Source: Oscillospiraceae bacterium
GTDB taxonomy: Bacteria; Bacillota; Clostridia; Oscillospirales; Ruminococcaceae
Reading direction: 5' to 3'
Assembly (NCBI GenBank): GCA_900768105.1
Contig: CAAGBQ010000055.1
Coordinates: 928 to 64,927 of the forward strand
Length of the DNA stretch: 64,000 bases
Below, piece after piece: positions 4,392 through 56,309 of this stretch (positions within the stretch are counted from its first letter, which is position 1; every line of letters starts with the position of its first letter). A program made the translations under genes and the position numbers. Under the pieces are notes generated by a model, which made no database searches, was not told the DNA's origin, and worked only from the letters and a program-made list of their open reading frames with translations.

Positions 4392-6815
4392 TCAGTTATC
4401 AACAATCTCCATAACCGCTTTTGTTACGGCAAGAGCGGTTTTTTGTATGTCTGCTTTGTCAATAAGGCTTTCAACCTCTGCGGGATTGGAGATAAAACCG
4501 ACTTCGAGCATAACTGCGGGGCAGAGGGTAAGGCGCGTGACGGAATAATAATCTTGCTTTGAGCCTTCGTTATCGCGCCGTGTTGCCGCAGAAATGTAAT
4601 CCACAAGCTTTTGCGAAAATTCTGCGGATTCCGCATAGTGATAATATACCTCTGTGCCGCACCAAAGGTTAGCATCGGCATTTTCTGCAATGGAATTGGA
4701 GTGGCAGCAGATATAAACATCTACAAAGGCCGCGCGCGCAGGGTCGGTTCTGCCATAGGTATCAAGCTTGCTTCCGTCGGAAACAAGCAGCACGATTTTT
4801 GCGCCTAACCGCTCAAGGCTTTCTGCAATGGACATGGTGTTTGCAAGGTTGATTTCCGCTTCGTTAACTCCATAGTCGCCTGCGGGACTTAAAGCGCCGG
4901 GGTCCGGTCCGCCGTGGCCGGAGCATACCGCGATAGTTATTCCGGAAAGAGGCTTTTCAAGGTTTCCGGAAAGTACAGGCTGTTTTTTAAGCACAACGGT
5001 CATTGTTCCGGTTTCTTCGTCCGTCTGAATATCCCAACCCCAAAGGCTGTGCTTTGCAAGAACGACCACCGTAACCGTGCCATCGCCGTTATCAATTGGA
5101 TTTACTATATAAAATAGCTCGGAAGCTTTATCAATGGAGCCAAAGTCGCTGTATGCGGTATTATAAAGGGTAAGCCGCAGCTTTTTGCCGTCAATTTCAC
5201 CACGGAATGCAGGAATATTGGTGCAGGAAAGGTGAAGCAGCTCATAATTTTCACCGGTTTCTCGGCCGGCGGCGGTAACAGTGTTTTGAATATCTCCGCT
5301 TCCTATAACGGGGGTGCTGTGTGCTTTTTTGATGTAGCCGCCCATGGAAAGACCATACCAGTCATCGGTTTCCTCCACAACATAGTCGGTGCAGCCGGTG
5401 CGCAGAGTAGCCGTAAACCCGCCGGTAGTTTCCGGCTGCGGTTCTATGCCGGCAAGGTTGCAGTTTGCGCGGATTGCGAGCTTTGCTCCATCGCCTATGG
5501 CAAAAACCTCGCCCTCGCTTTTATAGTTTTTCGTTTCGCCGTTATAAACAAGGGTGTATGAAACAGAGCCGAGGGAGGTTACTTCTCCGGAAACAAATTT
5601 TTCCTCCGGAATAACGACCTCCGCCTTGAATTTTGCGGGAACGCCGGCGTCCGCGGCGGCAACCTGCGAAAGAGTTACGCTTTTGCCCGCAACGCTGGCA
5701 TAAACCGTGCCGCCGCTTGGTCCAATGCAGGTTATGGTTACGGCTTCGCCAATGCGTGCGGAAAGGGAGGCAGTGGGCGCAATGGAGGAAAGACGGGAGG
5801 TCTTTCCGCTGCCGCCGGTCGCGGTGCCGCGGTTTATGGTTACATAACGGACGGAGTCACCTTGGGTAAATGTATATGTAGCGCCTTTTTTCGGCGCATC
5901 AACCGTTACGGCAAAAAGTCCGCTTTTTCCGGTGCGCTTGATTTCGGCTCCGTCCATATAGAGCTTTTTGTTCGGGTCGGAGGTACCGAAAATTGTGTAT
6001 TTATATGTTTGCACGGTAAGTGCGGAAGTGCTTGGGCGGGTTATGGCAAATTTTTGCGAAATTGAAAAGTCGGCATATTCATCAAGCACCGTACTGCCGA
6101 ATGACCCAACAAGATAGCTTGCGCTTCCATTTGCGTCGTCTTTAAGCGCCGCATAGTCATAAACGCAGAAGCCCGCGTTGCGAAGGCGGTTGACAAGATA
6201 CTGATTATTAAGCTCATATGCATCGCCGAAAAAGTCGCCGCGGCTTACCGGAACAAGCACGCGTGAAAGGTCGTTTACCGTGTAGAGTGAAGCTCCGGAA
6301 AAGTCTGTTTTGAGCTTTTCTAAATAATCCTCATAGCTGTTTTCGGAATAGGAGGAGCAAAGGTTTTCTGCAAAAATAATATTGAAGAGGTTGGAGGAAT
6401 AAAGCTCTGTGGCTCTTGCCGCAGCTGCTTCGCTGCCGAAGGGCAGAAAAACGCCGGCCTTTTCGCCAAGCGCGGCAAGGTTCTCTTCGGATGCCTCCAT
6501 AGCGGGGATGAGAACGGATTCAAAATTTTTTGCGGAAAGGACGGCTGCGGAATCGCTGTGGCAAAGGGCAAAAAGCTTTGCACCGTCAACCGTGCCGAAA
6601 AGCTCGTCTATGTAGCTATCGGAAAAGCCGTTCCGGCAGTCGAGTAAAATTCCGTTAAAGCCGCTTTCCTCTGTAAAAGCGGCAATCTCCGAAGCGGAAG
6701 CGCCGCTTTTCGCGTCGAGCACGAAAAGCTTATCCGTATTTTCTGCGGCAAAGGCGCAAACAGAAAGAATGAGCACCGCCGCGACGGCAAAAATCAAAGA
6801 AACTGTCTTTTTCAA
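4392..6815 (-). CDS. Secreted N-acetylmuramoyl-L-alanine amidase (C-terminal Amidase_3 domain) with a large N-terminal region of unknown function
   Basis: Signal peptide MKKTVSLIFAVAAVLILSVCAFA. The C-terminus has AVCSGHGGPDPGA...CHSNS...EVGFISNP, typical of Amidase_3. TTG start with a GGAGGA RBS, overlapping the upstream ORF stop (TTGA). Confidence 0.8.
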   Translation of the reverse strand: MKKTVSLIFAVAAVLILSVCAFAAENTDKLFVLDAKSGASASEIAAFTEESGFNGILLDCRNGFSDSYIDELFGTVDGAKLFALCHSDSAAVLSAKNFESVLIPAMEASEENLAALGEKAGVFLPFGSEAAAARATELYSSNLFNIIFAENLCSSYSENSYEDYLEKLKTDFSGASLYTVNDLSRVLVPVSRGDFFGDAYELNNQYLVNRLRNAGFCVYDYAALKDDANGSASYLVGSFGSTVLDEYADFSISQKFAITRPSTSALTVQTYKYTIFGTSDPNKKLYMDGAEIKRTGKSGLFAVTVDAPKKGATYTFTQGDSVRYVTINRGTATGGSGKTSRLSSIAPTASLSARIGEAVTITCIGPSGGTVYASVAGKSVTLSQVAAADAGVPAKFKAEVVIPEEKFVSGEVTSLGSVSYTLVYNGETKNYKSEGEVFAIGDGAKLAIRANCNLAGIEPQPETTGGFTATLRTGCTDYVVEETDDWYGLSMGGYIKKAHSTPVIGSGDIQNTVTAAGRETGENYELLHLSCTNIPAFRGEIDGKKLRLTLYNTAYSDFGSIDKASELFYIVNPIDNGDGTVTVVVLAKHSLWGWDIQTDEETGTMTVVLKKQPVLSGNLEKPLSGITIAVCSGHGGPDPGALSPAGDYGVNEAEINLANTMSIAESLERLGAKIVLLVSDGSKLDTYGRTDPARAAFVDVYICCHSNSIAENADANLWCGTEVYYHYAESAEFSQKLVDYISAATRRDNEGSKQDYYSVTRLTLCPAVMLEVGFISNPAEVESLIDKADIQKTALAVTKAVMEIVDN

Positions 6816-7027: not shown

Positions 7028-7377
7028 AAAAACACCTCCCTTTTATACATCAATATTATATCAAAGACGGCACAGATTTTCTATAATAAAATGTTACGAT
7101 TTTATGCTGAATTCGACTAAAATCGCTTTTTGTGAAGGCGGCTGCGCCGCTTTTTAAAAAAATTTTGACCGTTATTGCCATCTTTTCGCAAAGCGCTTGA
7201 CAGAAAGCAAAAATGCGGATAACATAGATAAGACAACATATGTGTTATGAAGCTGCGGAGCGGTACCGCTCCATTCTTTACTCCGTAAAGAATGATAAGC
7301 CTGTATGATAATAGGCAATTACAGCCATAGAAGGCTGTTTGCGAATACATTATAATTTAAATGAGGAGGAATTTGCA

Positions 7378-10300
7378 ATGAAAAAATTCCTGTCGTTATT
7401 GCTTGCGGCAATAATGATGCTTTCAGTTTTGCCCATTTCGGCGTTCGCCGATATGCAAGGCATCGACTTTGCGCCAATCGGAGCGCGGGGCGAGCCGGCA
7501 CAGGAACAGCCTGCCGAGCATGAGCAAATATCTGAAGCGCCGGAACAGCGGGAAGAATCCGGCGAAGAAATAGAAGAAAGCGTGTTTTTGGCTGCGCCGG
7601 CGGCGAATGGTTCAGCACCTGCACCAAGTGCCGAAAATGGTTTTGTTGAAGAAATATATTTTCCTGTTTCCGCAAAAAGGTCTTTGGGAAACGACCTTGA
7701 GCGTATTCAAGGCTTTACTTTTGACAAAAATGTAACAAGCTATGATTCCGTTGTTTTGCCGGATATTGCAGGAACGCTCGGGCAAGCCTCCGTCTATATC
7801 GGAATTACTGTTCCGGAAAGTTATGTCGCCGGAACGGAAGAACTTTATTATCAGCTCTATTTTGACGGTGTAGCATCGGGTAAGTTGACCAAAATTAAAA
7901 CAGCAATGACGAGGGTTGTAAGCTTGTTTCCGATGAAACAAGTAGAAGTCGGCAAATGGAGAACCCTGACCGTTCAGGTGGGAATACTTGATTCTACAAA
8001 AAAGAATTATAAGTTCTTTGATGCTTATGAATTCCACCTTACCCGTCAGGCTTCAATAAAGACGCTTGCAATTTCTTCTGCCGGAAAAAGCCTTACTATA
8101 AATCCTGCACCCGATTTTACAAATGAGCCTTATGTCCGCGATTACTATATTGTAACATCGGAAAGCAGCATTGACCTTAATATTACTCCGTCCACGGGCG
8201 CGAAAATATATTTGGGAGAAAGTGAGATTGAAGGTAAAAAGAATGTAAACATCGACCTTGAACCTTACCGTACCGGAGAAAATTCGGCCAAACTTCCCGT
8301 AACAATAAGGCATGACAGCGGCGTTGTAAAATCCGAAACCACATATAATATATATGTAAGCGACAAAGATTACACTCCGGTTATCACAGAGCAGCCGAAA
8401 AATACTGTGGTCGAAAAGACCGATAAGATTCCTCTTGCGGTTGAAGCCACAATAGAGGATGGCGGAAGTTTGAGTTATCAATGGTATTTGGTGTCGAGCA
8501 ATGGTTTGGCAAAGAAAATTGAAGGCGCTACCGAAGCAAAATATTTTCCTTCGACAGAATATGCCGGAAAAAGCAAATACTATTGTGTAGTAACAAATAC
8601 CATGGAGGGAGTACCGTATATGGATACCTCCGAAACAGCGGAATATGAAGTAAAGCTTACATATCTTACCGCACCGAAAAGCTATATTAGAAGCAACAAC
8701 GGATATTCTTTTTATGAAAACGGTCGCCCATGGTTGGTGGTTGGCGTGGCGGACAAAAGTTCCGATAACTCCGATAACGATACATTTGAAGGTCATGACA
8801 TATATAAAGAAATAAAGGTTGCAATTTACAGGACGGACAAGGACGAATCCACAGGCGGCGAGCTTGTTGCCGAAATCGGTTTTCCGAAGGCAGAAGAAGT
8901 CAATTACAGAATGTACCACAAAATGCTTTCTCCGCAATCCGTAAAGGGCACTTGGTATTATTATGCGGTCATAACTTTTTCCAAAGAGGGATTTGAGGAT
9001 GCGACGGGCACTTCGGAGCCTATTGCCATTACATTTAGCGAAATCGGAGGGCTTATTACAGGTCTTGAAGGTTCCGGTTCCGCTGCCGATCCATTCCTTG
9101 TTCATAATCAGCAGGAGCTTGAATATGTAAAAAGCATGGTAGAAGGCAAAAACGGAACGGCATATGATTTTGCCGGACAGACCATTGCGTTTGCGAACGA
9201 TATTTCACTTTCCGTGGATTGGCAACCTATCGGCGGCCTTAGGGAAGGTGCAAGTGAAAAGGACAGAGGTTTTGGACTTTTGCCGTTTGCAGGTATAATT
9301 GATGGGCACGGATATACCCTTACTATTGCCGATAACGGAAAGTGCCTCCTTAAATATGTTCGTAATGCCACAGTAAAAAATCTTAATATAAAAGGAAGCC
9401 ACATCCGAAGCAATGGTCTGGTAGAAAAATATATAGTGGACTATGGCGCAGATGCTAAATATGACGGACAGGTGTCAGAAAAAACCGCAACCATAGATAT
9501 TGAGAATGTCACTATAAAATCCGGCACAAAAATTTTAATGTCCGGCTTTATCAGCGGCTATGCCTCCGGAGCAAATACAGTTAATATTACGAATTGTGTG
9601 GTTGAAAAAGGTGTCGTAATAGGGGATGACGGTACTTGGGGAGAAGTTGATGACGACGAGTTCGAGTATGAATATGTAGGAAATCTGAATCACAAAGATT
9701 GCATTGGTTCTTTCGCAGGTTCGTTTAACGGAACAGTTAAAAACAGTGTGAGTTACGCTACCGTTTATGGCAGAAACCATGTTGGCGGTTTTGTTGGTAT
9801 GAAGGGTCAATCGATGGGTTCGTGCGATTTTGTGAACAATGCGTTTTTCGGTAAGGTAATAGCAAGCGGTGACGGCGCGGGCGGAATTGTAGGAAGCGGT
9901 TATGGCGGCGCAAGCGGCACGCCTATGGTACAGATACATAATTGCTATGTTGATGCCGAAATCGTAGGCAACGACAGAGTCGGTGGCATCATCGGTGAAG
10001 AAGGCGGACACAAAGATAATGTTGATGAAGGCGATGTTTACGGCGTAAGGGGCGTTGTTTCCGTTTCAGAAACACATTTCTACGGAAAGGTTTCCGCAAA
10101 AGGCAGTTATGTTGGCGGTATTATCGGATACTTTAATGATTTTACCAAAAAAACCGGAGAAGCAAGCAACTTCTTTATTGATACCTGCGGAACCGATAAA
10201 GCAATCGGCGGCGTTGCCGATGGCAATGAGGTTGTTGGCGAAGAGCTTTACGGCATGGCTTTTTCTAAAAAGGAATTTGAAGATGGCACTATAAACGCAA

Positions 10301-10719
10301 AGTTGAACGCTTCTGAAACCCCATACAGAAGCTATTATGGTTATTCGGAATGGGTTCAGGCAGAAAAATACCCTGTTCTCGACGGTACCGCGCCCGCTGC
10401 TGAAGCAAAAATTGCCGCAATCGGCACAGTTACCAGGGAAAGCGGTGACGCAATAAGAGCCGCAAGAAACGCATACGATGCCCTTTCCAAGGAGCAAAAA
10501 AAACTTGTTTCCAAAGAAGCTTACAATACTCTTGTAAAGGCGGAGGCCGATTATGCAAGACTTATGCGCATAAATGAGGACAGCAAGCCTATTCATATCA
10601 GCGCAAAAGGCGAAAGCAAGGGAGAGCAGAACCCAAATACCGGCGCATCGGCTTTGAGCATTGCTCCCGCAATGCTCGTGCTCGCGGTGGCGGCGCCCGT
10701 GCTCAAAAAACGCGGCTGA
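7378..10719 (+). CDS. Large cell-wall-anchored surface protein with Ig-like segments, GLUG-type Gly-rich repeats and a C-terminal sorting signal
   Basis: GAGGAGGA RBS then ATG at 7378. Signal peptide MKKFLSLLLAAIMMLSVLPISAFA. Repeated VGGFVG/GGIVGSG/VGGIIGE/VGGIIGY motifs. The C-terminus is NPNTG + hydrophobic stretch + KKRG. Confidence 0.8.
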   Translation: MKKFLSLLLAAIMMLSVLPISAFADMQGIDFAPIGARGEPAQEQPAEHEQISEAPEQREESGEEIEESVFLAAPAANGSAPAPSAENGFVEEIYFPVSAKRSLGNDLERIQGFTFDKNVTSYDSVVLPDIAGTLGQASVYIGITVPESYVAGTEELYYQLYFDGVASGKLTKIKTAMTRVVSLFPMKQVEVGKWRTLTVQVGILDSTKKNYKFFDAYEFHLTRQASIKTLAISSAGKSLTINPAPDFTNEPYVRDYYIVTSESSIDLNITPSTGAKIYLGESEIEGKKNVNIDLEPYRTGENSAKLPVTIRHDSGVVKSETTYNIYVSDKDYTPVITEQPKNTVVEKTDKIPLAVEATIEDGGSLSYQWYLVSSNGLAKKIEGATEAKYFPSTEYAGKSKYYCVVTNTMEGVPYMDTSETAEYEVKLTYLTAPKSYIRSNNGYSFYENGRPWLVVGVADKSSDNSDNDTFEGHDIYKEIKVAIYRTDKDESTGGELVAEIGFPKAEEVNYRMYHKMLSPQSVKGTWYYYAVITFSKEGFEDATGTSEPIAITFSEIGGLITGLEGSGSAADPFLVHNQQELEYVKSMVEGKNGTAYDFAGQTIAFANDISLSVDWQPIGGLREGASEKDRGFGLLPFAGIIDGHGYTLTIADNGKCLLKYVRNATVKNLNIKGSHIRSNGLVEKYIVDYGADAKYDGQVSEKTATIDIENVTIKSGTKILMSGFISGYASGANTVNITNCVVEKGVVIGDDGTWGEVDDDEFEYEYVGNLNHKDCIGSFAGSFNGTVKNSVSYATVYGRNHVGGFVGMKGQSMGSCDFVNNAFFGKVIASGDGAGGIVGSGYGGASGTPMVQIHNCYVDAEIVGNDRVGGIIGEEGGHKDNVDEGDVYGVRGVVSVSETHFYGKVSAKGSYVGGIIGYFNDFTKKTGEASNFFIDTCGTDKAIGGVADGNEVVGEELYGMAFSKKEFEDGTINAKLNASETPYRSYYGYSEWVQAEKYPVLDGTAPAAEAKIAAIGTVTRESGDAIRAARNAYDALSKEQKKLVSKEAYNTLVKAEADYARLMRINEDSKPIHISAKGESKGEQNPNTGASALSIAPAMLVLAVAAPVLKKRG

Positions 10720-41955: not shown

Positions 41956-44900
41956 TCAAAAACACATCATGTACAAGAACACAAAATAAATATGCTGCTG
42001 TGTTAGTAAATGTGCCCAAAATGTAAAATGCCGAATTTTTAAGAAATTTGGCGTCTGCACCACTGCATCTGTGCCGCCTCTTGAGGCAATAAAGGTAGTT
42101 ACGGATTTAGATACATACTTACCGTTTATCTTCTTCGGCACTTCTGCATTTTGGTTCAGGGTGTAAAATACGCCGTTGTCGTTAAGCCACTTGCCGTAGT
42201 TATATGCGGATTTGGAAACCCTTACGGAGCTTCCGTCCTTGTTCTGTGCGTAATATTTGCCGTCCTGCTCAATAAACTTTGCGCCGTCCTTTGCAAGGTT
42301 CGCTATGTTCTGCGCAACGGTGATTTCGCCGAGCATAGGGTCGTTTATCTTCCTTGCAAGTGCGGCTCTTTCACCGCTCGGAATATCGTTATCAGCCTTG
42401 TATCTGTCGAAATCGGAAAAAGGCTTTTTCTTCTGCGGAAGTGCTCCGTTCTCGTTAATGGCTCTCGTAATGTTCTGCCTGTCGCTTTCCATTGCGCCGA
42501 CCGTTTCGGGGTGCTCCGCTCCGTTTTGATATTCGGGGGAATATTCGTTAGCGGGGTTGACAGCTTTGTTAGATTCTGCTATACTCTTAATAGAGGCAAC
42601 CTCCAGTTGCTCTGATGTCCGTGAGTTTAGCTCTGGCTCAGAGGAGGTTGTCTTTTTTTTATTTATATTTGAAAGGTCGTAAAAAAGCTTTCTTCCGTCT
42701 TTTTTTACCCCTATCAAAACATCCGCAGAATATTCATTTTCGCCGATTTTCAGGTTTACATTTCCTCTGTCAAAAGAAACAATATTATCGTTCCTCGGAT
42801 GCTCCGGAGGCTCATTTTTATACTCGGTGCTTTGGGAAATGGTATCAAGATATGGCGAAGTACGCATTTTATCTGCGTATACTTCCGGCTCATAAGATGA
42901 AAGGCTTTTGCTTTCTTTGGAATTTGAAAACTCTCCCCGGCTTTTTGCAGAAACCTCAATATGTTCTCCGTTTATGCTGAATCCTTCAGGGAAAACACTG
43001 CGGATAATGTTCTTAACCCTCGCAAGCCAATCTTTTTTCGGAATGTTTTCAAGAACATCCGATTTTATATCAATGGTAGTGTTATTGTCTGCATCGGTAA
43101 TAACGCTAACGCCCTTTTTTATCTCCGCAACTTCTTGTTTAGAAAGAGAGTATTTTTCTCTCTTCGTTAAGCTGTCATTTTCCGCTTGAGCACCGATATT
43201 TTCTGTTTGAGCACCGACATTTTCGGCTTGAGCACCGTTTTGAGCACGCATAAGCTCCAATTTTTCCTTGTATTTATCAATGAGCACGGAAACCTCGTCT
43301 GTATCATAAAAGTAATCGCTGCCGTTCTCATCGGCGGTTATTTGCTCAAGCTTGTACATCATTTCGCTGTATCTGTCGGGGTTTTTCTGCTCAAGCTTCG
43401 CCATATCGCCGTTTTCAAGGTGCTTTTTATAGTTTTCAAGGGTCTGTATGGTATTTTCAAGCTTTTTTTCCGTGCTCACGGGCTTTTTCTTCGGGGCTTG
43501 CTTTTCGGTTTTCTGCTCTGTTTTTTGAGAAAAATTCTTATCTCGGTACGCTTCAAGCTTCTTTATAGCCTCTCTGCGTGCCGCAATTTCGCTTTCCTCA
43601 AGCCGAAGCTGTACGGCGTCGCCGTTGTCCGCTTCGTCCCAGTACATACCGTTGTCGGCTTCCTCTTTGTACCTTGCAATAAGCGAATCGACATTTTTAC
43701 GGCTGTTAAGTAAAAAAGCGTCGTCCTCGTTCATAATCATTCCGTTATCAGAAAATGCCTTGGCGTTCGCTCCGTCCCTTGCTCTCTGCCCGTTTTCAAA
43801 GGCTTTCTGCATAGCACCTTTCAGCTTTTCGCCAAAGCTCGGGTGCTTTTTCGTAAAGGCTTCAAAGCTCTCTGCGTTGTACGCTTCGTTGTACAATGCT
43901 TCAAACCTCGATTGCTTCATACTGGTATTGCTGAAATCCTTGTACGCGCGTTTTACCGTGTCCCTGTCCGCTTTAAGCTGTGCGCCCTGCTGTGGGGCTT
44001 TCTGCGGGGCTTTTGTTTCGGCTTCACTCTTTACCTCTGTGGGCTTTTGAGCCTGCTGTGGTGCTTCCTGTTTGGGCTGTGCGGGGGTTTCGGTTTCCTG
44101 CCGTGCGGGGGCTTCCTGTGCAGCCTTTTTCTCGTTAAACAGCTCGATGTATGCCTGCTTGTACGCTTCTTTTTCCGTGCCTTCACTGCCGTTATACAGG
44201 TTTCTGATGCGCTGGAGTTTTTGCTCTATGGTAAGGTCGCTGTTTTTAACCGTTTCGATGGTTTTCTGTGCGGGATTTACTTTTTTTTCTGTGGTTTTTT
44301 TCTCCGCCGCTCTAACATCAAGCTGGTCAAGCATTTCCTCGTGCTTTACTTCCTTTTTGGAAGGCTTCTTTTTCGGGGCTTCCTGCTCCGTCTGTGCGGG
44401 GGCTTCCTGCTGTGTTTGAGTTTCTGCCTGCACATTTCCCGCCACGGAAGAAACGCTCTCTGCGGGGCTTGTAGGGGCTTGCTGAACAGTGTCGGGAATT
44501 GTTGCATCAAGTTGCGATTCAATCTTCGCCTTAACAACAGGGTCTTGCGACGCCTGATAACCGGTTGTTAAGTTGTCAAGCAGTTCGGTTTTTGCACGGT
44601 CGAGCTTTGCGTCAGTTTCCGCATTACCGGTATATGTGTTGTTGCCAAGTCTGTTTACGATTTGTTGCCCTCCGGAAAGCGCCACATTTCCTAATCCGAA
44701 TATACCGCCGCTCCAAAATCCGGTTTTGGCGTTGTCTAACGCTACATTCAGGTCGTAAACCTGATTCCATTTGCCCTGAACCGCAAGGTCAATAACACCT
44801 TGAGTAAGATAATTAAGGGTATACTCGGCAAATTCTTCTCCGCCTTCTTCAAAAGCGTTGTAAAGGAGATTTGTAATCCATTTTTGCTTTGCTGCGCTTT

Positions 44901-45117
44901 CAAGCTTGTTCAGCGGGCTTTTGCTTCCGCCAATACCGCCCATAGCTTCTGTGATATACGATATTGCACCTGCCGCGGTTGCTCTTATTGTGCTTTCAAG
45001 CTTTCCCTGCCCCTCTGCTCTGCATTCAACATATTTGTCGGCCGCGCTGCTCGCTGCCATTGCGCCGGTGTATATCCCGCCTTCAAAGTCATGTGCTGCT
45101 TTTCCGGCTGCAGGCAT
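41956..45117 (-). CDS. 1053-aa low-complexity, polyvalent-protein-like ORF, probably a truncated remnant of a phage or ICE giant protein
   Basis: No usable RBS. The N-terminus begins mid-domain. Long E/K/Q/A/P-rich linkers separate globular blocks. The last ~30 aa (NFLKIRHFTFWAHLLTQQHIYFVFLYMMCF) look like read-through into non-coding DNA. Confidence 0.55.
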   Translation of the reverse strand: MPAAGKAAHDFEGGIYTGAMAASSAADKYVECRAEGQGKLESTIRATAAGAISYITEAMGGIGGSKSPLNKLESAAKQKWITNLLYNAFEEGGEEFAEYTLNYLTQGVIDLAVQGKWNQVYDLNVALDNAKTGFWSGGIFGLGNVALSGGQQIVNRLGNNTYTGNAETDAKLDRAKTELLDNLTTGYQASQDPVVKAKIESQLDATIPDTVQQAPTSPAESVSSVAGNVQAETQTQQEAPAQTEQEAPKKKPSKKEVKHEEMLDQLDVRAAEKKTTEKKVNPAQKTIETVKNSDLTIEQKLQRIRNLYNGSEGTEKEAYKQAYIELFNEKKAAQEAPARQETETPAQPKQEAPQQAQKPTEVKSEAETKAPQKAPQQGAQLKADRDTVKRAYKDFSNTSMKQSRFEALYNEAYNAESFEAFTKKHPSFGEKLKGAMQKAFENGQRARDGANAKAFSDNGMIMNEDDAFLLNSRKNVDSLIARYKEEADNGMYWDEADNGDAVQLRLEESEIAARREAIKKLEAYRDKNFSQKTEQKTEKQAPKKKPVSTEKKLENTIQTLENYKKHLENGDMAKLEQKNPDRYSEMMYKLEQITADENGSDYFYDTDEVSVLIDKYKEKLELMRAQNGAQAENVGAQTENIGAQAENDSLTKREKYSLSKQEVAEIKKGVSVITDADNNTTIDIKSDVLENIPKKDWLARVKNIIRSVFPEGFSINGEHIEVSAKSRGEFSNSKESKSLSSYEPEVYADKMRTSPYLDTISQSTEYKNEPPEHPRNDNIVSFDRGNVNLKIGENEYSADVLIGVKKDGRKLFYDLSNINKKKTTSSEPELNSRTSEQLEVASIKSIAESNKAVNPANEYSPEYQNGAEHPETVGAMESDRQNITRAINENGALPQKKKPFSDFDRYKADNDIPSGERAALARKINDPMLGEITVAQNIANLAKDGAKFIEQDGKYYAQNKDGSSVRVSKSAYNYGKWLNDNGVFYTLNQNAEVPKKINGKYVSKSVTTFIASRGGTDAVVQTPNFLKIRHFTFWAHLLTQQHIYFVFLYMMCF
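43186..43248. repeat. Three and a half tandem copies of a 21-bp unit (ttgagcaccgayattttcngy) inside the large ORF
   Basis: Units start at 43186, 43207, 43228 and 43240 (partial). They encode AQNGAQAENVGAQTENIGAQAEN on the minus strand. Confidence 0.7.
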
Positions 45118-54113: not shown

Positions 54114-54141
54114 TTTTTTGTACTGAATCAAGTGCGTTTAG

Positions 54142-54196
54142 CGGCGGCAACGGAGAATATAATTATTGAATAATATTTATATATTGCCGCCGTTTT
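54142..54196 (+). terminator. Long-loop hairpin plus T4 between tsf and the pduS-like gene (weak or partial terminator candidate)
   Basis: cggcggcaa/ttgccgccg 9-bp stem, a 33-nt AT-rich loop, then TTTT. Confidence 0.3.
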
Positions 54197-54243
54197 GCTT
54201 ATCAAAGCATAAATTGCAGAAAAATACAGGGAGGTGCATTGAT

Positions 54244-55599
54244 TTGAGTTTAGTCGAAACCGTTAAAAATGCCGGTATTGTCGGTGCGGGCGGCGCAGGA
54301 TTTCCTACCCATGTAAAACTCAACGCTAAATCTGAGTACTTCATCGTAAACGCAGCAGAGTGTGAACCGCTTATTGAAACTGATAAGTTCCTTATCAGAA
54401 CCAGAGCGGCAGACCTTGTTAAAGGCGTTGACATGATTGCAAAAGAGCTTGGCGCCGACAAAAAGTACATAGCCCTCAAAGCAGCGTACAAAACCGAGAT
54501 TGCTGCTCTTGAAAAAGCTATCGCCGAAGCAGGAAGCGACATTAAACTCCACAAAATGGGATATTTCTATCCCGCAGGTGACGAGCAGGTAATAGTTTGC
54601 GAAATCACCGGTAAATCCGTCCCCGAAAGGGGCATTCCGCTGATGGTTGGTGCGGTTGTTGATAATGTAGGTACTGTCCTTAATATTGTGGACGCCTATG
54701 ACGGCAAGCCTGTTACCGATAAATTCCTCAGCGTGGTCGGCGAGGTCAAACACCCTGTTATGCTCCATGTGCCGCTTGGAACCTCCGTTCGCGAGTGTGT
54801 AAAAGCAGCAGACCCCACCATTTCCAATTATGCGGTAATTATGGGCGGACCTATGATGGGTAAGGTTCATGATAATGACGAAGACATTGATAAGCTTGTT
54901 ATTACAAAAACCGACGGTAACATTATTGTTCTCCCGAAAGACCATTATCTTGTTACCAGCAGCCACCTTAAGCCCGAATCTATGATTAACAGAGCAAAAT
55001 CAAGCTGCATCCAGTGCCGTATGTGCACCGATAACTGCCCGCGTTATCAGACCGGACACGATATTAAGCCGCATATGACCATGAGAAACCTGTTCCGCGA
55101 GAGCCTTATCACCGATAACGATGAGTATCTCCGCGTATTCGGCCATGTTATGAACTGCTCCGAGTGCGGTGCTTGCGAACTGTTCTCCTGCCCGATGCAT
55201 CTTTCTCCCAGAAAGGCAAATGTGTACATCAAAAACCAGCTCCGTGCAAGAGGAATTGATGTTCCGAAGAATGCAGAGCCGCATGCAAGACCGGAAAGAG
55301 AGGTCCGCAAGATTCCTACCAACCGTCTTGTTGCACGCCTTGGCCTCAGCAAATATTACGGCAAGCACCTTGCCACTGATGAGCCTATCGTTCTGAACCC
55401 CGAAGTAGTCGAAGTGCCGCTTAAACAGCACATCGGCGCACCTGCAACTGCCGTTGTTTCCGTCGGCGATGTAGTAAAGAAGGGCGACCCGATTGGTGTT
55501 ATGGCTGAAGGCAAGCTTGGCGCGAATGTATACGCCAGCTTCGACGGAGAAGTCACTGCTGTCACTGACAGAGTAGAAATAGGGAGGGAGAGCAAATGA
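54244..55599 (+). CDS. pduS: PduS-like RnfC/NuoF-family flavo-iron-sulfur oxidoreductase (SLBB domain plus 2x[4Fe-4S])
   Basis: AGIVGAGGAGFPTHVKL, NAAECEPL, CIQCRMCTDNCP, CSECGACELFSCP. TTG start 9 nt after GGGAGG gives 451 aa. Confidence 0.8.
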   Translation: MSLVETVKNAGIVGAGGAGFPTHVKLNAKSEYFIVNAAECEPLIETDKFLIRTRAADLVKGVDMIAKELGADKKYIALKAAYKTEIAALEKAIAEAGSDIKLHKMGYFYPAGDEQVIVCEITGKSVPERGIPLMVGAVVDNVGTVLNIVDAYDGKPVTDKFLSVVGEVKHPVMLHVPLGTSVRECVKAADPTISNYAVIMGGPMMGKVHDNDEDIDKLVITKTDGNIIVLPKDHYLVTSSHLKPESMINRAKSSCIQCRMCTDNCPRYQTGHDIKPHMTMRNLFRESLITDNDEYLRVFGHVMNCSECGACELFSCPMHLSPRKANVYIKNQLRARGIDVPKNAEPHARPEREVRKIPTNRLVARLGLSKYYGKHLATDEPIVLNPEVVEVPLKQHIGAPATAVVSVGDVVKKGDPIGVMAEGKLGANVYASFDGEVTAVTDRVEIGRESK

Positions 55600-56144
55600 T
55601 CCAGACAATCGGAATGCTTGAATTTAACAGCATCGCAAAGGGTATTGAAACCTGCGATGTTATGCTCAAAGCTGCTGAAGTAAGTCTTATCCGTACTTCC
55701 ACAGTATGCCCCGGCAAATACATCATCATCATCTATGGCGATACCGGTTCCGTAAAAGCCTCCATTCTTGCTGGCGAAATCAACGGCGGCAACTGCGTAG
55801 TTGACAAAATGATTATCCAGAATGTACATCCGCAGCTTATTCCCGCACTCAGCGGCACCGCACAGGTTCAGCGCGGCGATGCTATCGGCGCAATGGAATT
55901 TTACAGCATCACTTCTGCCATTAAAGCAGCCGATGTTGCTGCAAAAGCCGCACAGATTACCCTTGTAACCATTACCATGGGTTATGCTGTCGGCGGCAAG
56001 GGCATTGTAACCCTTACCGGCGATGTCGGCGCAGTAAGAGCTGCTGTTGCTGCAGGTATTGAGGAGCCTTCCAGAAACGATTTGTATATCGGTTCCACCG
56101 TTATACCGAAATACGCTCCCGAACTCTTCGATTCTCTTCTGTAA
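55596..56144 (+). CDS. pduT: PduT-like tandem-BMC-domain shell protein (BMC-T) with the pore Cys conserved
   Basis: Two BMC domains (IGMLEFNSIAKGIETCDVMLKAA... and IGAMEFYSITSAIKAADVAAKAA...). Cys38 sits in the TVCPGK loop. ATGA overlap with the upstream gene. Confidence 0.8.
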   Translation: MIQTIGMLEFNSIAKGIETCDVMLKAAEVSLIRTSTVCPGKYIIIIYGDTGSVKASILAGEINGGNCVVDKMIIQNVHPQLIPALSGTAQVQRGDAIGAMEFYSITSAIKAADVAAKAAQITLVTITMGYAVGGKGIVTLTGDVGAVRAAVAAGIEEPSRNDLYIGSTVIPKYAPELFDSLL

Positions 56145-56156
56145 TTTCAAATTTAT

Positions 56157-56186
56157 AAAAAAGCCCGGCAATGCCGGGCTTTTTTG
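56157..56186 (+). terminator. Intrinsic terminator
   Basis: A6-gcccggca-at-gccgggc-T6. Confidence 0.75.
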
Positions 56187-56309
56187 TGTGTAAAAAATAT
56201 TGATGGATTTTATCTGTCCGGATTTTCGTTTTAATCTTTACATTCACCTTCGTTTAGTGTAAAATAATATAAAATAGGGGTAATTGGAAGGTCCGCTCCC
56301 TTTGACAAA

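Follow-up and report, generated by a model that had tools for sequence, protein, structure and literature searches.

A PduS/PduT redox module between tsf and pyrH in gut Oscillospiraceae is very probably a satellite of an ethanolamine microcompartment locus

We analyzed a 64-kb stretch of DNA from an Oscillospiraceae genome (hereafter, the window), in which the gap between tsf and pyrH holds a genuine PduS/PduT (MNdh/BMC-T^SE) gene pair. The features of this gap are as follows:

54140..54194, + strand: hairpin 3' of tsf with a T-rich tail; GC stem of 11 bp just past the tsf stop codon
54197..54243, + strand: PduS/PduT leader, ~45 nt, nearly invariant, including the ribosome-binding site
54244..55599, + strand: PduS/MNdh-type NADH dehydrogenase, 451 aa, TTG start, TGA stop
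55596..56144, + strand: PduT-type BMC-T^SE shell protein, 182 aa, tandem BMC domains
56154..56188, + strand: intrinsic terminator of the PduS-PduT unit, located by direct folding
56237..56265, + strand: pyrH promoter-like site TTTACA–17 nt–TAAAAT from a promoter scan (10/12 matches)

All four domains of MNdh are present in PduS. Pfam matches cover Complex1_51K (PF01512, residues 7-149, E 1e-45), SLBB (PF10531, residues 164-189, weak), Fer4_17 (residues 254-321), and RnfC_N (PF13375, residues 367-444). The RnfC_N barrel is C-terminal, a circular permutation relative to RnfC, whose N-terminal barrel aligns to PduS residues 365-440. The motifs GAGGAGFPT, CIQCRMCTDNCP, and CSECGACELFSCP are all present and are invariant in relatives; the glycine-rich FMN/NADH motif GxGGxGFP and all eight Fe-S cysteines, which make up two [4Fe-4S] motifs, are invariant in 25 PduS homologues. 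Most related species have ATG at the position of the TTG at 54244, and metagenome gene callers likewise give a protein of 451 aa, which together confirm this start. The best relative of PduS among solved structures is RnfC of the Rnf complex (PDB 7ZC6_C, 9ERI_C), with which it shares the FMN/NADH and 2x[4Fe-4S] core. However, we rejected PduS as an RnfC subunit: the domain order is permuted, the RnfC profile TIGR01945 scores 236.7 bits (below its cutoff of 245.95), the annotated contigs contain no rnf genes (rnfABDEG) in the neighbourhood, and the partner of PduS is a BMC shell protein rather than a membrane complex.

PduT contains two PF00936 BMC domains (E 3e-41) and aligns over its full length with the PduT-type structures 3NWG, 3PAC, and 3N79 (E 1e-45 to 1e-38). 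Its pore loop, V37-C38-P39-G40-K41, lies opposite the ICPGK of PduT and is invariant in all homologues; in Salmonella, C38 of this CP(G/S)K pore motif is the residue that ligates the [4Fe-4S] cluster. Conserved elements include CPGK, two D-x-x-x-K edge motifs, VHP, and IPKYAP, and the edge motifs are consistent with tiling into a shell. The best NCBIfam model, TIGR02526 (eut_PduT), scores 139.1 bits and does not reach the equivalog trusted cutoff of 250.3, which fits the generic public name "BMC domain-containing protein" given to this family. Compared with the PduS/PduT of Salmonella and Citrobacter (PDB 3N79, 3PAC), the pair is collinear and of the same length class, the PduT Cys38 pore loop aligns, and PduS there also has 451 aa and the same domains. 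In contrast, similarity between the PduT proteins is distant (E ~1e-39), and the Salmonella/Citrobacter genes lie within the pdu operon of a propanediol compartment.

The two genes are translationally coupled through an ATGA overlap at 55596-55599; a 4-nt overlap is also found in relatives that carry the pair within an ethanolamine (EUT) locus. Upstream, the 136-nt spacer between tsf and PduS folds with -35 kcal/mol (z = -3.2). The hairpin at 54140-54194 is kept in 14 species despite differing stem sequences, with compensatory double changes in four of seven consensus pairs, and probably acts either as the terminator of rpsB-tsf or as a leaky attenuator ahead of the PduS/PduT module. The leader that follows is almost 100% identical across the 14-species clade alignment, as against tsf protein identities down to 74%, and carries the ribosome-binding site GGGAGG at 54229-54234, 9 nt 5' of the PduS start codon. 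An Rfam search with the leader gave no match (the sole miRNA match, E = 0.99, is noise), and the promoter scan reported no sigma-70-like promoter in the spacer. Because the consensus terminator scan did not report the PduT terminator, we folded this region directly; the hairpin at 56154-56188 has -24 kcal/mol and z = -5.7, and 0 of 200 shuffles fold as well. In all clade species this position holds a strong GC hairpin with a T-run, each with its own stem sequence. Other clade species have the TTTACA element of the pyrH promoter-like site at the corresponding position, and this site delimits the inserted unit on its downstream side. An earlier note on this DNA had described gene 1 as a 451-aa PduS/RnfC-type protein starting at TTG 54244, gene 2 as a tandem-BMC protein with Cys38, and the pair as ATGA-coupled with its own strong terminator. 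This description holds on every point: the domains, motifs, and start comparison for gene 1, the PF00936 domains and structural alignments for gene 2, the ORF coordinates, and the fold of the terminator.

We then considered what surrounds the pair. phmmer searches of the window found no other BMC-H, BMC-P, EutL, EutBC, aldehyde dehydrogenase, PduL, EutT, EutJ, EutH, or EutQ, as the earlier note had reported for BMC-H hexamers, a BMC-P pentamer, and a signature enzyme. Pfam-annotated contigs likewise show no further BMC/EUT genes in the 10 kb past each window end, bringing the coverage to ~84 kb altogether. PduT is the sole BMC-T gene over this distance, and neither PF03319 nor BMC-H genes accompany it; in this respect the locus has the content of a satellite as defined by Axen 2014 and Sutter 2021. 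The same absence is what one would expect if the pair were a true orphan, that is, a stand-alone two-protein electron relay in a genome without a microcompartment, and the pairs of other Oscillospiraceae (L032, L034, L035), which occupy a second context without BMC neighbours, also speak for that reading. It is nonetheless extremely unlikely, as the evidence on linkage presented below contradicts it.

Across species, PduT is followed by pyrH in 22 GTDB species representatives of the Oscillospiraceae, with tsf visible upstream in 13 of them, and the pair is kept intact in every clade genome seen. Outgroups whose tsf is at most 62% identical are without the pair, and in many of them tsf is followed directly by pyrH. 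The comparison of the tsf-pyrH junction in relatives that the earlier note had called for thus places the pair as fixed in ~22 representatives and absent from outgroups, in keeping with its expectation that tsf and pyrH normally adjoin; we also judge correct its remark that a translation-gene cluster is an unusual position for BMC genes. One outgroup (L131) has a PduS-like ORF after tsf, which is a NuoF/HydB-type subunit and a coincidence.

The closest homologues outside the clade (79-80% identity for PduT, 72% for PduS) lie within complete EUT loci of the order EutB-C-L-BMC-AldDh-EutM-EutM-EutT-PduL-EutJ-p25x-EutN-PduS-PduT-EutQ. EUT loci of Lachnospiraceae share this arrangement, with the pair after EutN. 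L033/L043 and, from Lachnospiraceae, L036-L040 are examples of the EUT2B/EUT2D loci, whose main locus includes PduS (Axen 2014, PMC4207490). They have the order EutN-PduS-PduT-(EutH)-EutQ and the 4-nt overlap, whereas in the window clade the pair is removed and a spacer of 213 nt separates EutN from EutH. Loci of the EUT2B/EUT2D type are the direct evolutionary source of the pair between tsf and pyrH. EUT loci missing exactly the PduS/PduT module are abundant (those of P0304, P0292, and P0284 are without it), and the EUT-locus protein p25x occurs in four independent variants, all in loci where EutN adjoins EutH.

A contig from a sister species links the two halves physically. On ERZ15610001 NODE_8 (285,200 bp), rpsB-tsf-PduS-PduT-...-pyrH lies at 32-54 kb, and a complete EUT locus, EutP-A-B-C-L-BMC-AldDh-M-M-T-PduL-J-p250-EutN-EutH-EutQ, lies at 124-145 kb without PduS/PduT, ~88 kb from the pair. 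This genome is ~84% identical to the window at the nucleotide level; the proteins agree more closely, at 98.4% for PduT and 97.1% for PduS. The shell proteins of its main locus are EutL, two EutM, EutN, and one EutK/M-like protein, with none of the PduT type, and the locus also encodes an acetylating acetaldehyde dehydrogenase (TIGR02518, 683 bits); the aldehyde-dehydrogenase BMC that accompanies MNdh is therefore absent from the window and found at the level of the genome. For the window genome itself, 631,780 bp is the longest contig recorded for the exact PduT (P0241) and equally for EutA P0407, EutJ P0496, and EutH P0515, and a second value, 367,569 bp, is common to PduT P0245 and EutC P0436; such shared values are a fingerprint and not sequence identity, and the proof of a common contig comes from the sister species. 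In a ruminant MAG, the accessions of PduT (MBQ2898845.1) and EutT (MBQ2898546.1) are 299 apart. We set aside a similar comparison of MGN0626453/MGN0626463 (EUT locus) with MGN0629183 (PduS of the L017 MAG), which are ~2,720-2,730 apart and may come from the same or an adjacent MAG. If gene order is conserved, the main EUT locus would be expected ~34-55 kb to the left of where the window begins.

Based on the relatives that carry the pair in their EUT loci, the same-contig EUT locus, the fingerprints, and the accession proximity, we conclude that the pair is very probably a satellite locus of an EUT2-type ethanolamine microcompartment, moved out of an EUT locus that is still present elsewhere on the chromosome. 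The earlier note had called the pair an orphan, an idea that was to fail if a complete BMC locus lay just outside the window; the sister species, the fingerprints, and the ruminant MAG point to such a locus, and the label does not stand. Between the two roles it had offered, a satellite locus or a shell-independent relay, the same-contig EUT locus favors the first and goes against the second. The genes would have moved, in an ancestor of this uncultured gut clade, as a self-contained unit into the gap that separates the tsf terminator from the pyrH promoter, bringing along the leader, ribosome-binding site, ATGA coupling, and terminator and leaving the main EUT locus without them. Known satellite loci (Axen 2014; Sutter 2021, PMC8217296), such as CcmK3/K4 and the EutABC-EutL "EUT modules", are likewise distal, carry an insufficient shell set that complements a main locus, and are probably fission products. 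The pair differs from them in its content, a redox enzyme and a BMC-T^SE protein, and in lying inside a cluster of core translation genes.

The module itself has been described. A PNAS 2024 study of Clostridium botulinum GRM1 proteins defined MNdh/BMC-T^SE as a cofactor-recycling module and renamed PduS as MNdh, the metabolosome NADH dehydrogenase (PMC11626177). NADH reduces the BMC-T^SE cluster via MNdh, in biochemistry done with the C. botulinum homologue only; the two genes adjoin in 97% of loci, and the module is mobile and sometimes found in satellite loci, of the PVM and ACI types (PMC11626177). The pair resembles this module in its four-domain enzyme with a permuted C-terminal RnfC_N barrel, in its adjacent tandem-BMC partner with a CP(G/S)K cysteine, and in its genome-level co-occurrence with an aldehyde-dehydrogenase-containing BMC. 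It differs in being the likely satellite of an EUT2-type compartment and in its clade-wide position in the rpsB-tsf/pyrH-frr cluster with its own leader, terminator, and high-expression codon usage. Both the module and the idea of satellite loci are thus already in the literature; what is new is the translation-cluster site and the apparent uncoupling from the eut operon. We regard this as a clean natural case of the PduS/PduT module as a detachable cassette, and the relocation supports the published view of a generic, exchangeable cofactor-recycling unit. It places the redox module ~90 kb from the compartment genes in abundant uncultured Oscillospiraceae of the human, pig, and ruminant gut. 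Locus-based BMC callers and generic names ("BMC domain-containing protein", even "CcmL/EutN") will miss or mislabel such a pair, and single-window analyses will wrongly label it an orphan.

By analogy with the published homologues, the PduT trimer would tile into the EUT shell and PduS would dock on its lumenal face. Electron transfer between the two would then regenerate NAD+ inside the compartment, and the pair may also reduce cobalamin for EutBC, which depends on B12. The weight given to these two roles could also be reversed, with PduS acting first as a cob(III)/cob(II)alamin reductase that feeds the adenosyltransferase EutT so that AdoCbl is regenerated for EutBC within the compartment, and with PduT importing the electrons. 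The EUT compartment depends on B12, and EutA, EutBC, and a cobalamin adenosyltransferase are among the products of the main locus in the sister species, where this locus and the satellite both have flanking cobalamin riboswitches. PduS was also first characterised as a cobalamin reductase, as cited in PMC4207490 and PMC11626177. However, the reduction of the BMC-T^SE cluster by NADH argues for the other order, as does the wide occurrence of the module in B12-independent compartments, although the NAD+ recycling and cobalamin roles are not mutually exclusive (PMC11626177). In addition, there is no alcohol dehydrogenase among the 17 main-locus genes, in keeping with NAD+ having to be recycled through MNdh. 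We therefore consider a primarily cobalamin-directed role possible but doubtful.

The satellite pair is under strong purifying selection, as judged from substitution rates: dN/dS is 0.03-0.10 for PduS and 0.03-0.12 for PduT, and dN of both lies below that of tsf, pyrH, frr, uppS, and cdsA. PduT matches rpsB in its low dS. In codon adaptation (CAI), PduT ranks first and PduS second among the 48 non-reference window genes, against a small reference set of 3 genes, and their codon usage appears typical of highly expressed genes. This bias, the position, and the finding of no promoter or regulator that could be recognised suggest constitutive or read-through transcription, and raise the question of why the only Fe-S shell protein of a compartment should have housekeeping-like expression.

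A rival reading is dual use, in which the pair serves the EUT compartment but is made constitutively and would also work in the cytosol independently of the compartment. There it could be a general NADH:acceptor oxidoreductase, say, or reduce cobalamin in corrinoid salvage, and the PduT trimer would act outside a shell when there is no ethanolamine. The uncoupling from the eut operon would fit this, in a unit that carries no regulator and has just a conserved hairpin and leader after tsf, as would the codon adaptation, the low dS of PduT, and the retention of an intact pair throughout the clade. The sister species also has a cobalamin riboswitch and its regulated gene directly after PduT. On the other hand, the main-locus EUT proteins are equally conserved across clade species (92-100%), so the conservation of the pair needs no extra function; PduT retains all of its shell-tiling features, and the codon bias was measured on the small reference set. 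Dual use is thus rather improbable, and we give little credence to its stronger form, a highly and constitutively expressed housekeeping redox device acting free in the cytosol while the compartment is uninduced. Such a cytosolic role, if true, would be the first shell-independent function of a microcompartment shell protein.

Two loci (L031, L042) have eutBC beside PduT. We rejected these genes as the remnant of a decayed EUT locus. Their homology to other contigs is confined to the two ORFs, and elsewhere the cassette is accompanied by eutVW-like regulators, so we treat it as separate and lineage-specific.

The features between tsf and pyrH in the window are as follows:

54140-54194, plus strand: hairpin with a T-rich tail after the tsf stop codon; structure conserved across 14 species; 4 of 7 consensus pairs show compensatory changes
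54197-54243, plus strand: leader with ribosome-binding site upstream of PduS; ~45 nt, nearly invariant across species
54244-55599, plus strand: gene 1, PduS/MNdh-type, 451 aa; Complex1_51K, SLBB, 4Fe-4S dicluster and C-terminal RnfC_N barrel domains (domain search)
55596-56144, plus strand: gene 2, PduT-type, 182 aa; two BMC domains
56154-56188, plus strand: terminator of the PduS-PduT unit; folds at -24 kcal/mol, z = -5.7

We confirmed both open reading frames proposed in the earlier note, their ATGA overlap, and the strong terminator of their own. RnfC subunits are the best relatives of solved structure for PduS, and its residues 365-440 align to the RnfC N-terminal barrel, which corresponds to the circular permutation of that barrel described for PduS/MNdh (PMC11626177). 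The start codon is TTG in the window and ATG at the same codon in most related species; since a GGGAGG ribosome-binding site is also positioned 9 nt upstream and gene calls made independently agree on 451 aa, we consider this start secure. Gene 2 had been described as a tandem BMC protein retaining Cys38, and indeed it aligns over its full length to the PduT-type structures 3NWG, 3PAC, and 3N79, with Cys38 within the V-C-P-G-K pore loop. All shell-edge motifs are intact in an alignment of homologues. The top NCBIfam model is eut_PduT, at 139 bits (below the curated cutoff of 250). At the sequence level, PduS has the features that define MNdh, and PduT those that define BMC-T^SE. Public annotation of the pair is generic or wrong: NCBI names are only "BMC domain-containing protein" for PduT-cluster members and "MAG: 4Fe-4S dicluster domain-containing protein" for PduS, and members of the PduT cluster in JGI/IMG are named "microcompartment protein CcmL/EutN", the wrong shell-protein class.

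Gut metagenome assemblies contain the exact window PduT protein in 147 blocks, with identical context in all. PduT is followed by pyrH in 22 Oscillospiraceae MAGs (GTDB species representatives) from human, goat, sheep, deer, and buffalo gut, and tsf is also visible upstream of the pair in 13 of them. The pair is absent from relatives with EF-Ts ≤62% identical. As the earlier note expected of a normally adjacent tsf and pyrH, many of these relatives have tsf followed directly by pyrH-frr-uppS-cdsA, the ancestral junction. The note had also found no other microcompartment parts in the 64 kb, and neither the window nor the 10 kb past each end contains another BMC, EutN, EutL, EutBC, aldehyde dehydrogenase, PduL, EutT, EutJ, EutH, or EutQ gene.

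Two explanations had been offered for the isolated pair: a satellite of a distant BMC operon, or a shell-independent relay. As query we used the fast-evolving TIGR02536-like protein that precedes EutN in main loci, those encoding the ethanolamine (EUT-type) compartment, and obtained 58-62% homologues in large numbers. All four variants examined belong to EUT loci with EutN, a 213-nt spacer, and then EutH-EutQ, and all four lack PduS/PduT exactly where relatives carry the pair. One such locus (L132) lies at 124-145 kb of contig ERZ15610001 NODE_8 (285,200 bp), which at 32-54 kb carries PFK...sigma-PRC-rpsB-tsf-PduS-PduT-...-pyrH-frr, on the same strand and ~88 kb downstream of the EUT locus. 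The genome is that of a sister species (~84% nucleotide identity to the window over 18 kb; PduT 98.4%, PduS 97.1%). For the window's own PduT sequence (P0241), the longest contig recorded, 631,780 bp, is identical to that for EutA (P0407), EutJ (P0496), and EutH (P0515); likewise, PduT variant P0245 and EutC P0436 share a value of 367,569 bp. A ruminant MAG has PduT (MBQ2898845.1) and the EUT adenosyltransferase (MBQ2898546.1) at accession numbers that differ by 299, and in one sample the EUT locus and the pair are on separate contigs of similar coverage (3.56 and 3.95). The link to a main locus is thus direct in the sister species and a longest-contig fingerprint in the window's own genome; the satellite reading is supported, and the orphan or shell-independent relay is not.

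The main locus encodes the shell proteins EutL, a EutK/M-like protein, two EutM, and EutN. No PduT-type protein is present in the gene set seen, so the satellite supplies the only Fe-S BMC-T. The 213-nt EutN-EutH spacer (L132:11064-11276 and L139:5053-5265) shows good conservation among clade species, includes GC-rich hairpins, and may represent either a regulatory element or an excision scar.

By the published definition, the tsf-pyrH locus is a satellite locus. Satellite-encoded MNdh/BMC-T^SE modules are known for PVM and ACI compartments (PMC11626177), whereas this one belongs to an EUT2-type compartment. EUT2B and EUT2D loci containing PduS have been published before (PMC4207490); we found no description of the tsf-PduS-PduT-pyrH arrangement in the literature searched. 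What is new is the EUT2-type instance, the pair's clade-wide fixation inside the rpsB-tsf/pyrH-frr cluster, and signs, in codon usage, of housekeeping-like expression.

The nearest homologues outside the clade (PduT 79-80%, PduS 72%) lie within complete EUT-type loci of other Oscillospiraceae, in the order EutB-EutC-EutL-BMC-AldDh-EutM-EutM-EutT-PduL-EutJ-p25x-EutN-PduS-PduT-EutQ, p25x being the protein used as query. In Lachnospiraceae EUT loci (PduT 63%) the genes are ordered in the same way, and PduT is followed by EutH. In a PduS+PduT distance tree, the Oscillospiraceae sequences fall into three lineages: the tsf/pyrH clade, the form found inside EUT loci, and a second context outside such loci. 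The last comprises DegV, L-serine dehydratase, PduS, PduT, an AraC/GyrI-like regulator, and an AMP-dependent ligase (L032:2449-4421, L034:2992-4949, L035:5542-7499; non-BMC neighbours; PduT 74-78% identical to the window's), and probably reflects a separate, independent move of the module.

We read the hairpin after tsf as the rpsB-tsf terminator, possibly leaky. The PduS leader is almost unchanged in species whose EF-Ts is only 74-84% identical; a promoter scan found no sigma-70-like promoter in it, and it has no Rfam match. A possible 4-bp UGCA/UGCA stem would form around the ribosome-binding site; being invariant, it offers no evidence by covariation. Each species has a strong terminator of its own 3' of PduT, and then a conserved TTTACA promoter element for pyrH. 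Given these elements, the pair forms a compact unit that lies precisely in the gap after one housekeeping operon and before the next. The spacer separating PduT from pyrH is a hot spot for insertions, holding a 775-aa secreted protein (L014), a 127-aa ORF (L021), eutCB (L031, L042), or an 858-aa protein behind a cobalamin riboswitch (L135-L137). Between relatives L028 and L030, synonymous divergence is 0.04-0.05 for PduS/PduT, 0.13-0.17 for rpsB/tsf, and 0.4-0.8 for pyrH, frr, uppS, and cdsA, a pattern suggesting that clade species have recombined, with a breakpoint where PduT adjoins pyrH.

Clade-wide identity to the window proteins is 92-95% for PduT and 87-90% for PduS. Among neighbours (EF-Ts 74-84%, PyrH 76-81%, RRF 78-85%, UppS 67-76%, CdsA 57-74%), S2 alone exceeds the pair (95-98%). 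The pair's dN/dS is 0.03-0.12, and the synonymous rate of PduT is as low as that of rpsB. Against a small reference set of three genes (rpsB, tsf, and frr), CAI ranked PduT first (0.65) and PduS second (0.58) of 48 other window genes, above phosphofructokinase; these ranks suggest that the pair is expressed at a substantial level, probably constitutively. The EUT proteins of the main locus show the same degree of conservation among clade species (92-100%); the EUT system as a whole is hence a core trait, and conservation of the pair calls for no special explanation.

The characterised MNdh/BMC-T^SE complex provides a model for mechanism by homology (PMC11626177). The PduT trimer would be one of the tiles of the EUT shell, with PduS docked on its lumenal face. 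NADH from the encapsulated acetylating acetaldehyde dehydrogenase would pass electrons through FMN, two [4Fe-4S] clusters, and the pore [4Fe-4S] to an external acceptor, regenerating NAD+ inside the compartment. No alcohol dehydrogenase is among the 17 main-locus genes seen (the region from EutP on), which fits the class of compartments lacking alcohol dehydrogenase, where MNdh alone does the recycling. The pair may additionally contribute to cobalamin reduction for EutBC/EutT.

Two ruminant clade species carry a divergent second eutBC cassette directly 3' of PduT (L031:2075-4346 and L042:204-2541, both minus strand), its EutB just 64% identical to the next nearest cluster. Elsewhere (L049-L051) the cassette lies behind eutV/eutW-like regulators and beside an esterase, in L049 also with glutamine synthetases; the EutB protein is identical in L031 and L049-L051, with DNA differing by ~7%. 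The N-terminus of its EutC (MANQKEIENLVAKIVSEIV) resembles the Salmonella EutC encapsulation peptide. EutB in L042:1105-2541 (minus strand) is in two ORFs, which could be a frameshift, pseudogene, or assembly error. Other neighbouring features, with RF00174 riboswitches scoring above the Rfam gathering score, are:

L136:12007-12224 and L137:2727-2944: cobalamin riboswitch (RF00174) directly after PduT, ahead of the 858-aa protein inserted before pyrH
L132:14230-14451: cobalamin riboswitch (RF00174) after the main EUT locus, ahead of a 2342-aa DUF4430/Flg_new protein
L014:1-162: cobalamin riboswitch (RF00174) upstream of an 863-aa secreted protein
41956-45117 (window), minus strand: Zeta_toxin/AAA_33 ORF adjoining the phosphofructokinase gene; 1053 aa, 1136 aa in a metagenome gene call

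The 858-aa protein (L136/L137) has no family match; together with the 2342-aa and 863-aa proteins, it may be a B12-capture surface protein. The window itself contains no cobalamin riboswitch of this kind. A hint that the organism has a surface system of the cellulosome or amylosome type comes from a cohesin-domain protein (L045:1-752), ~6-7 kb left of the window start. We also note several large signal-peptide proteins in the window, including 4392-6815 and 7339-10719.
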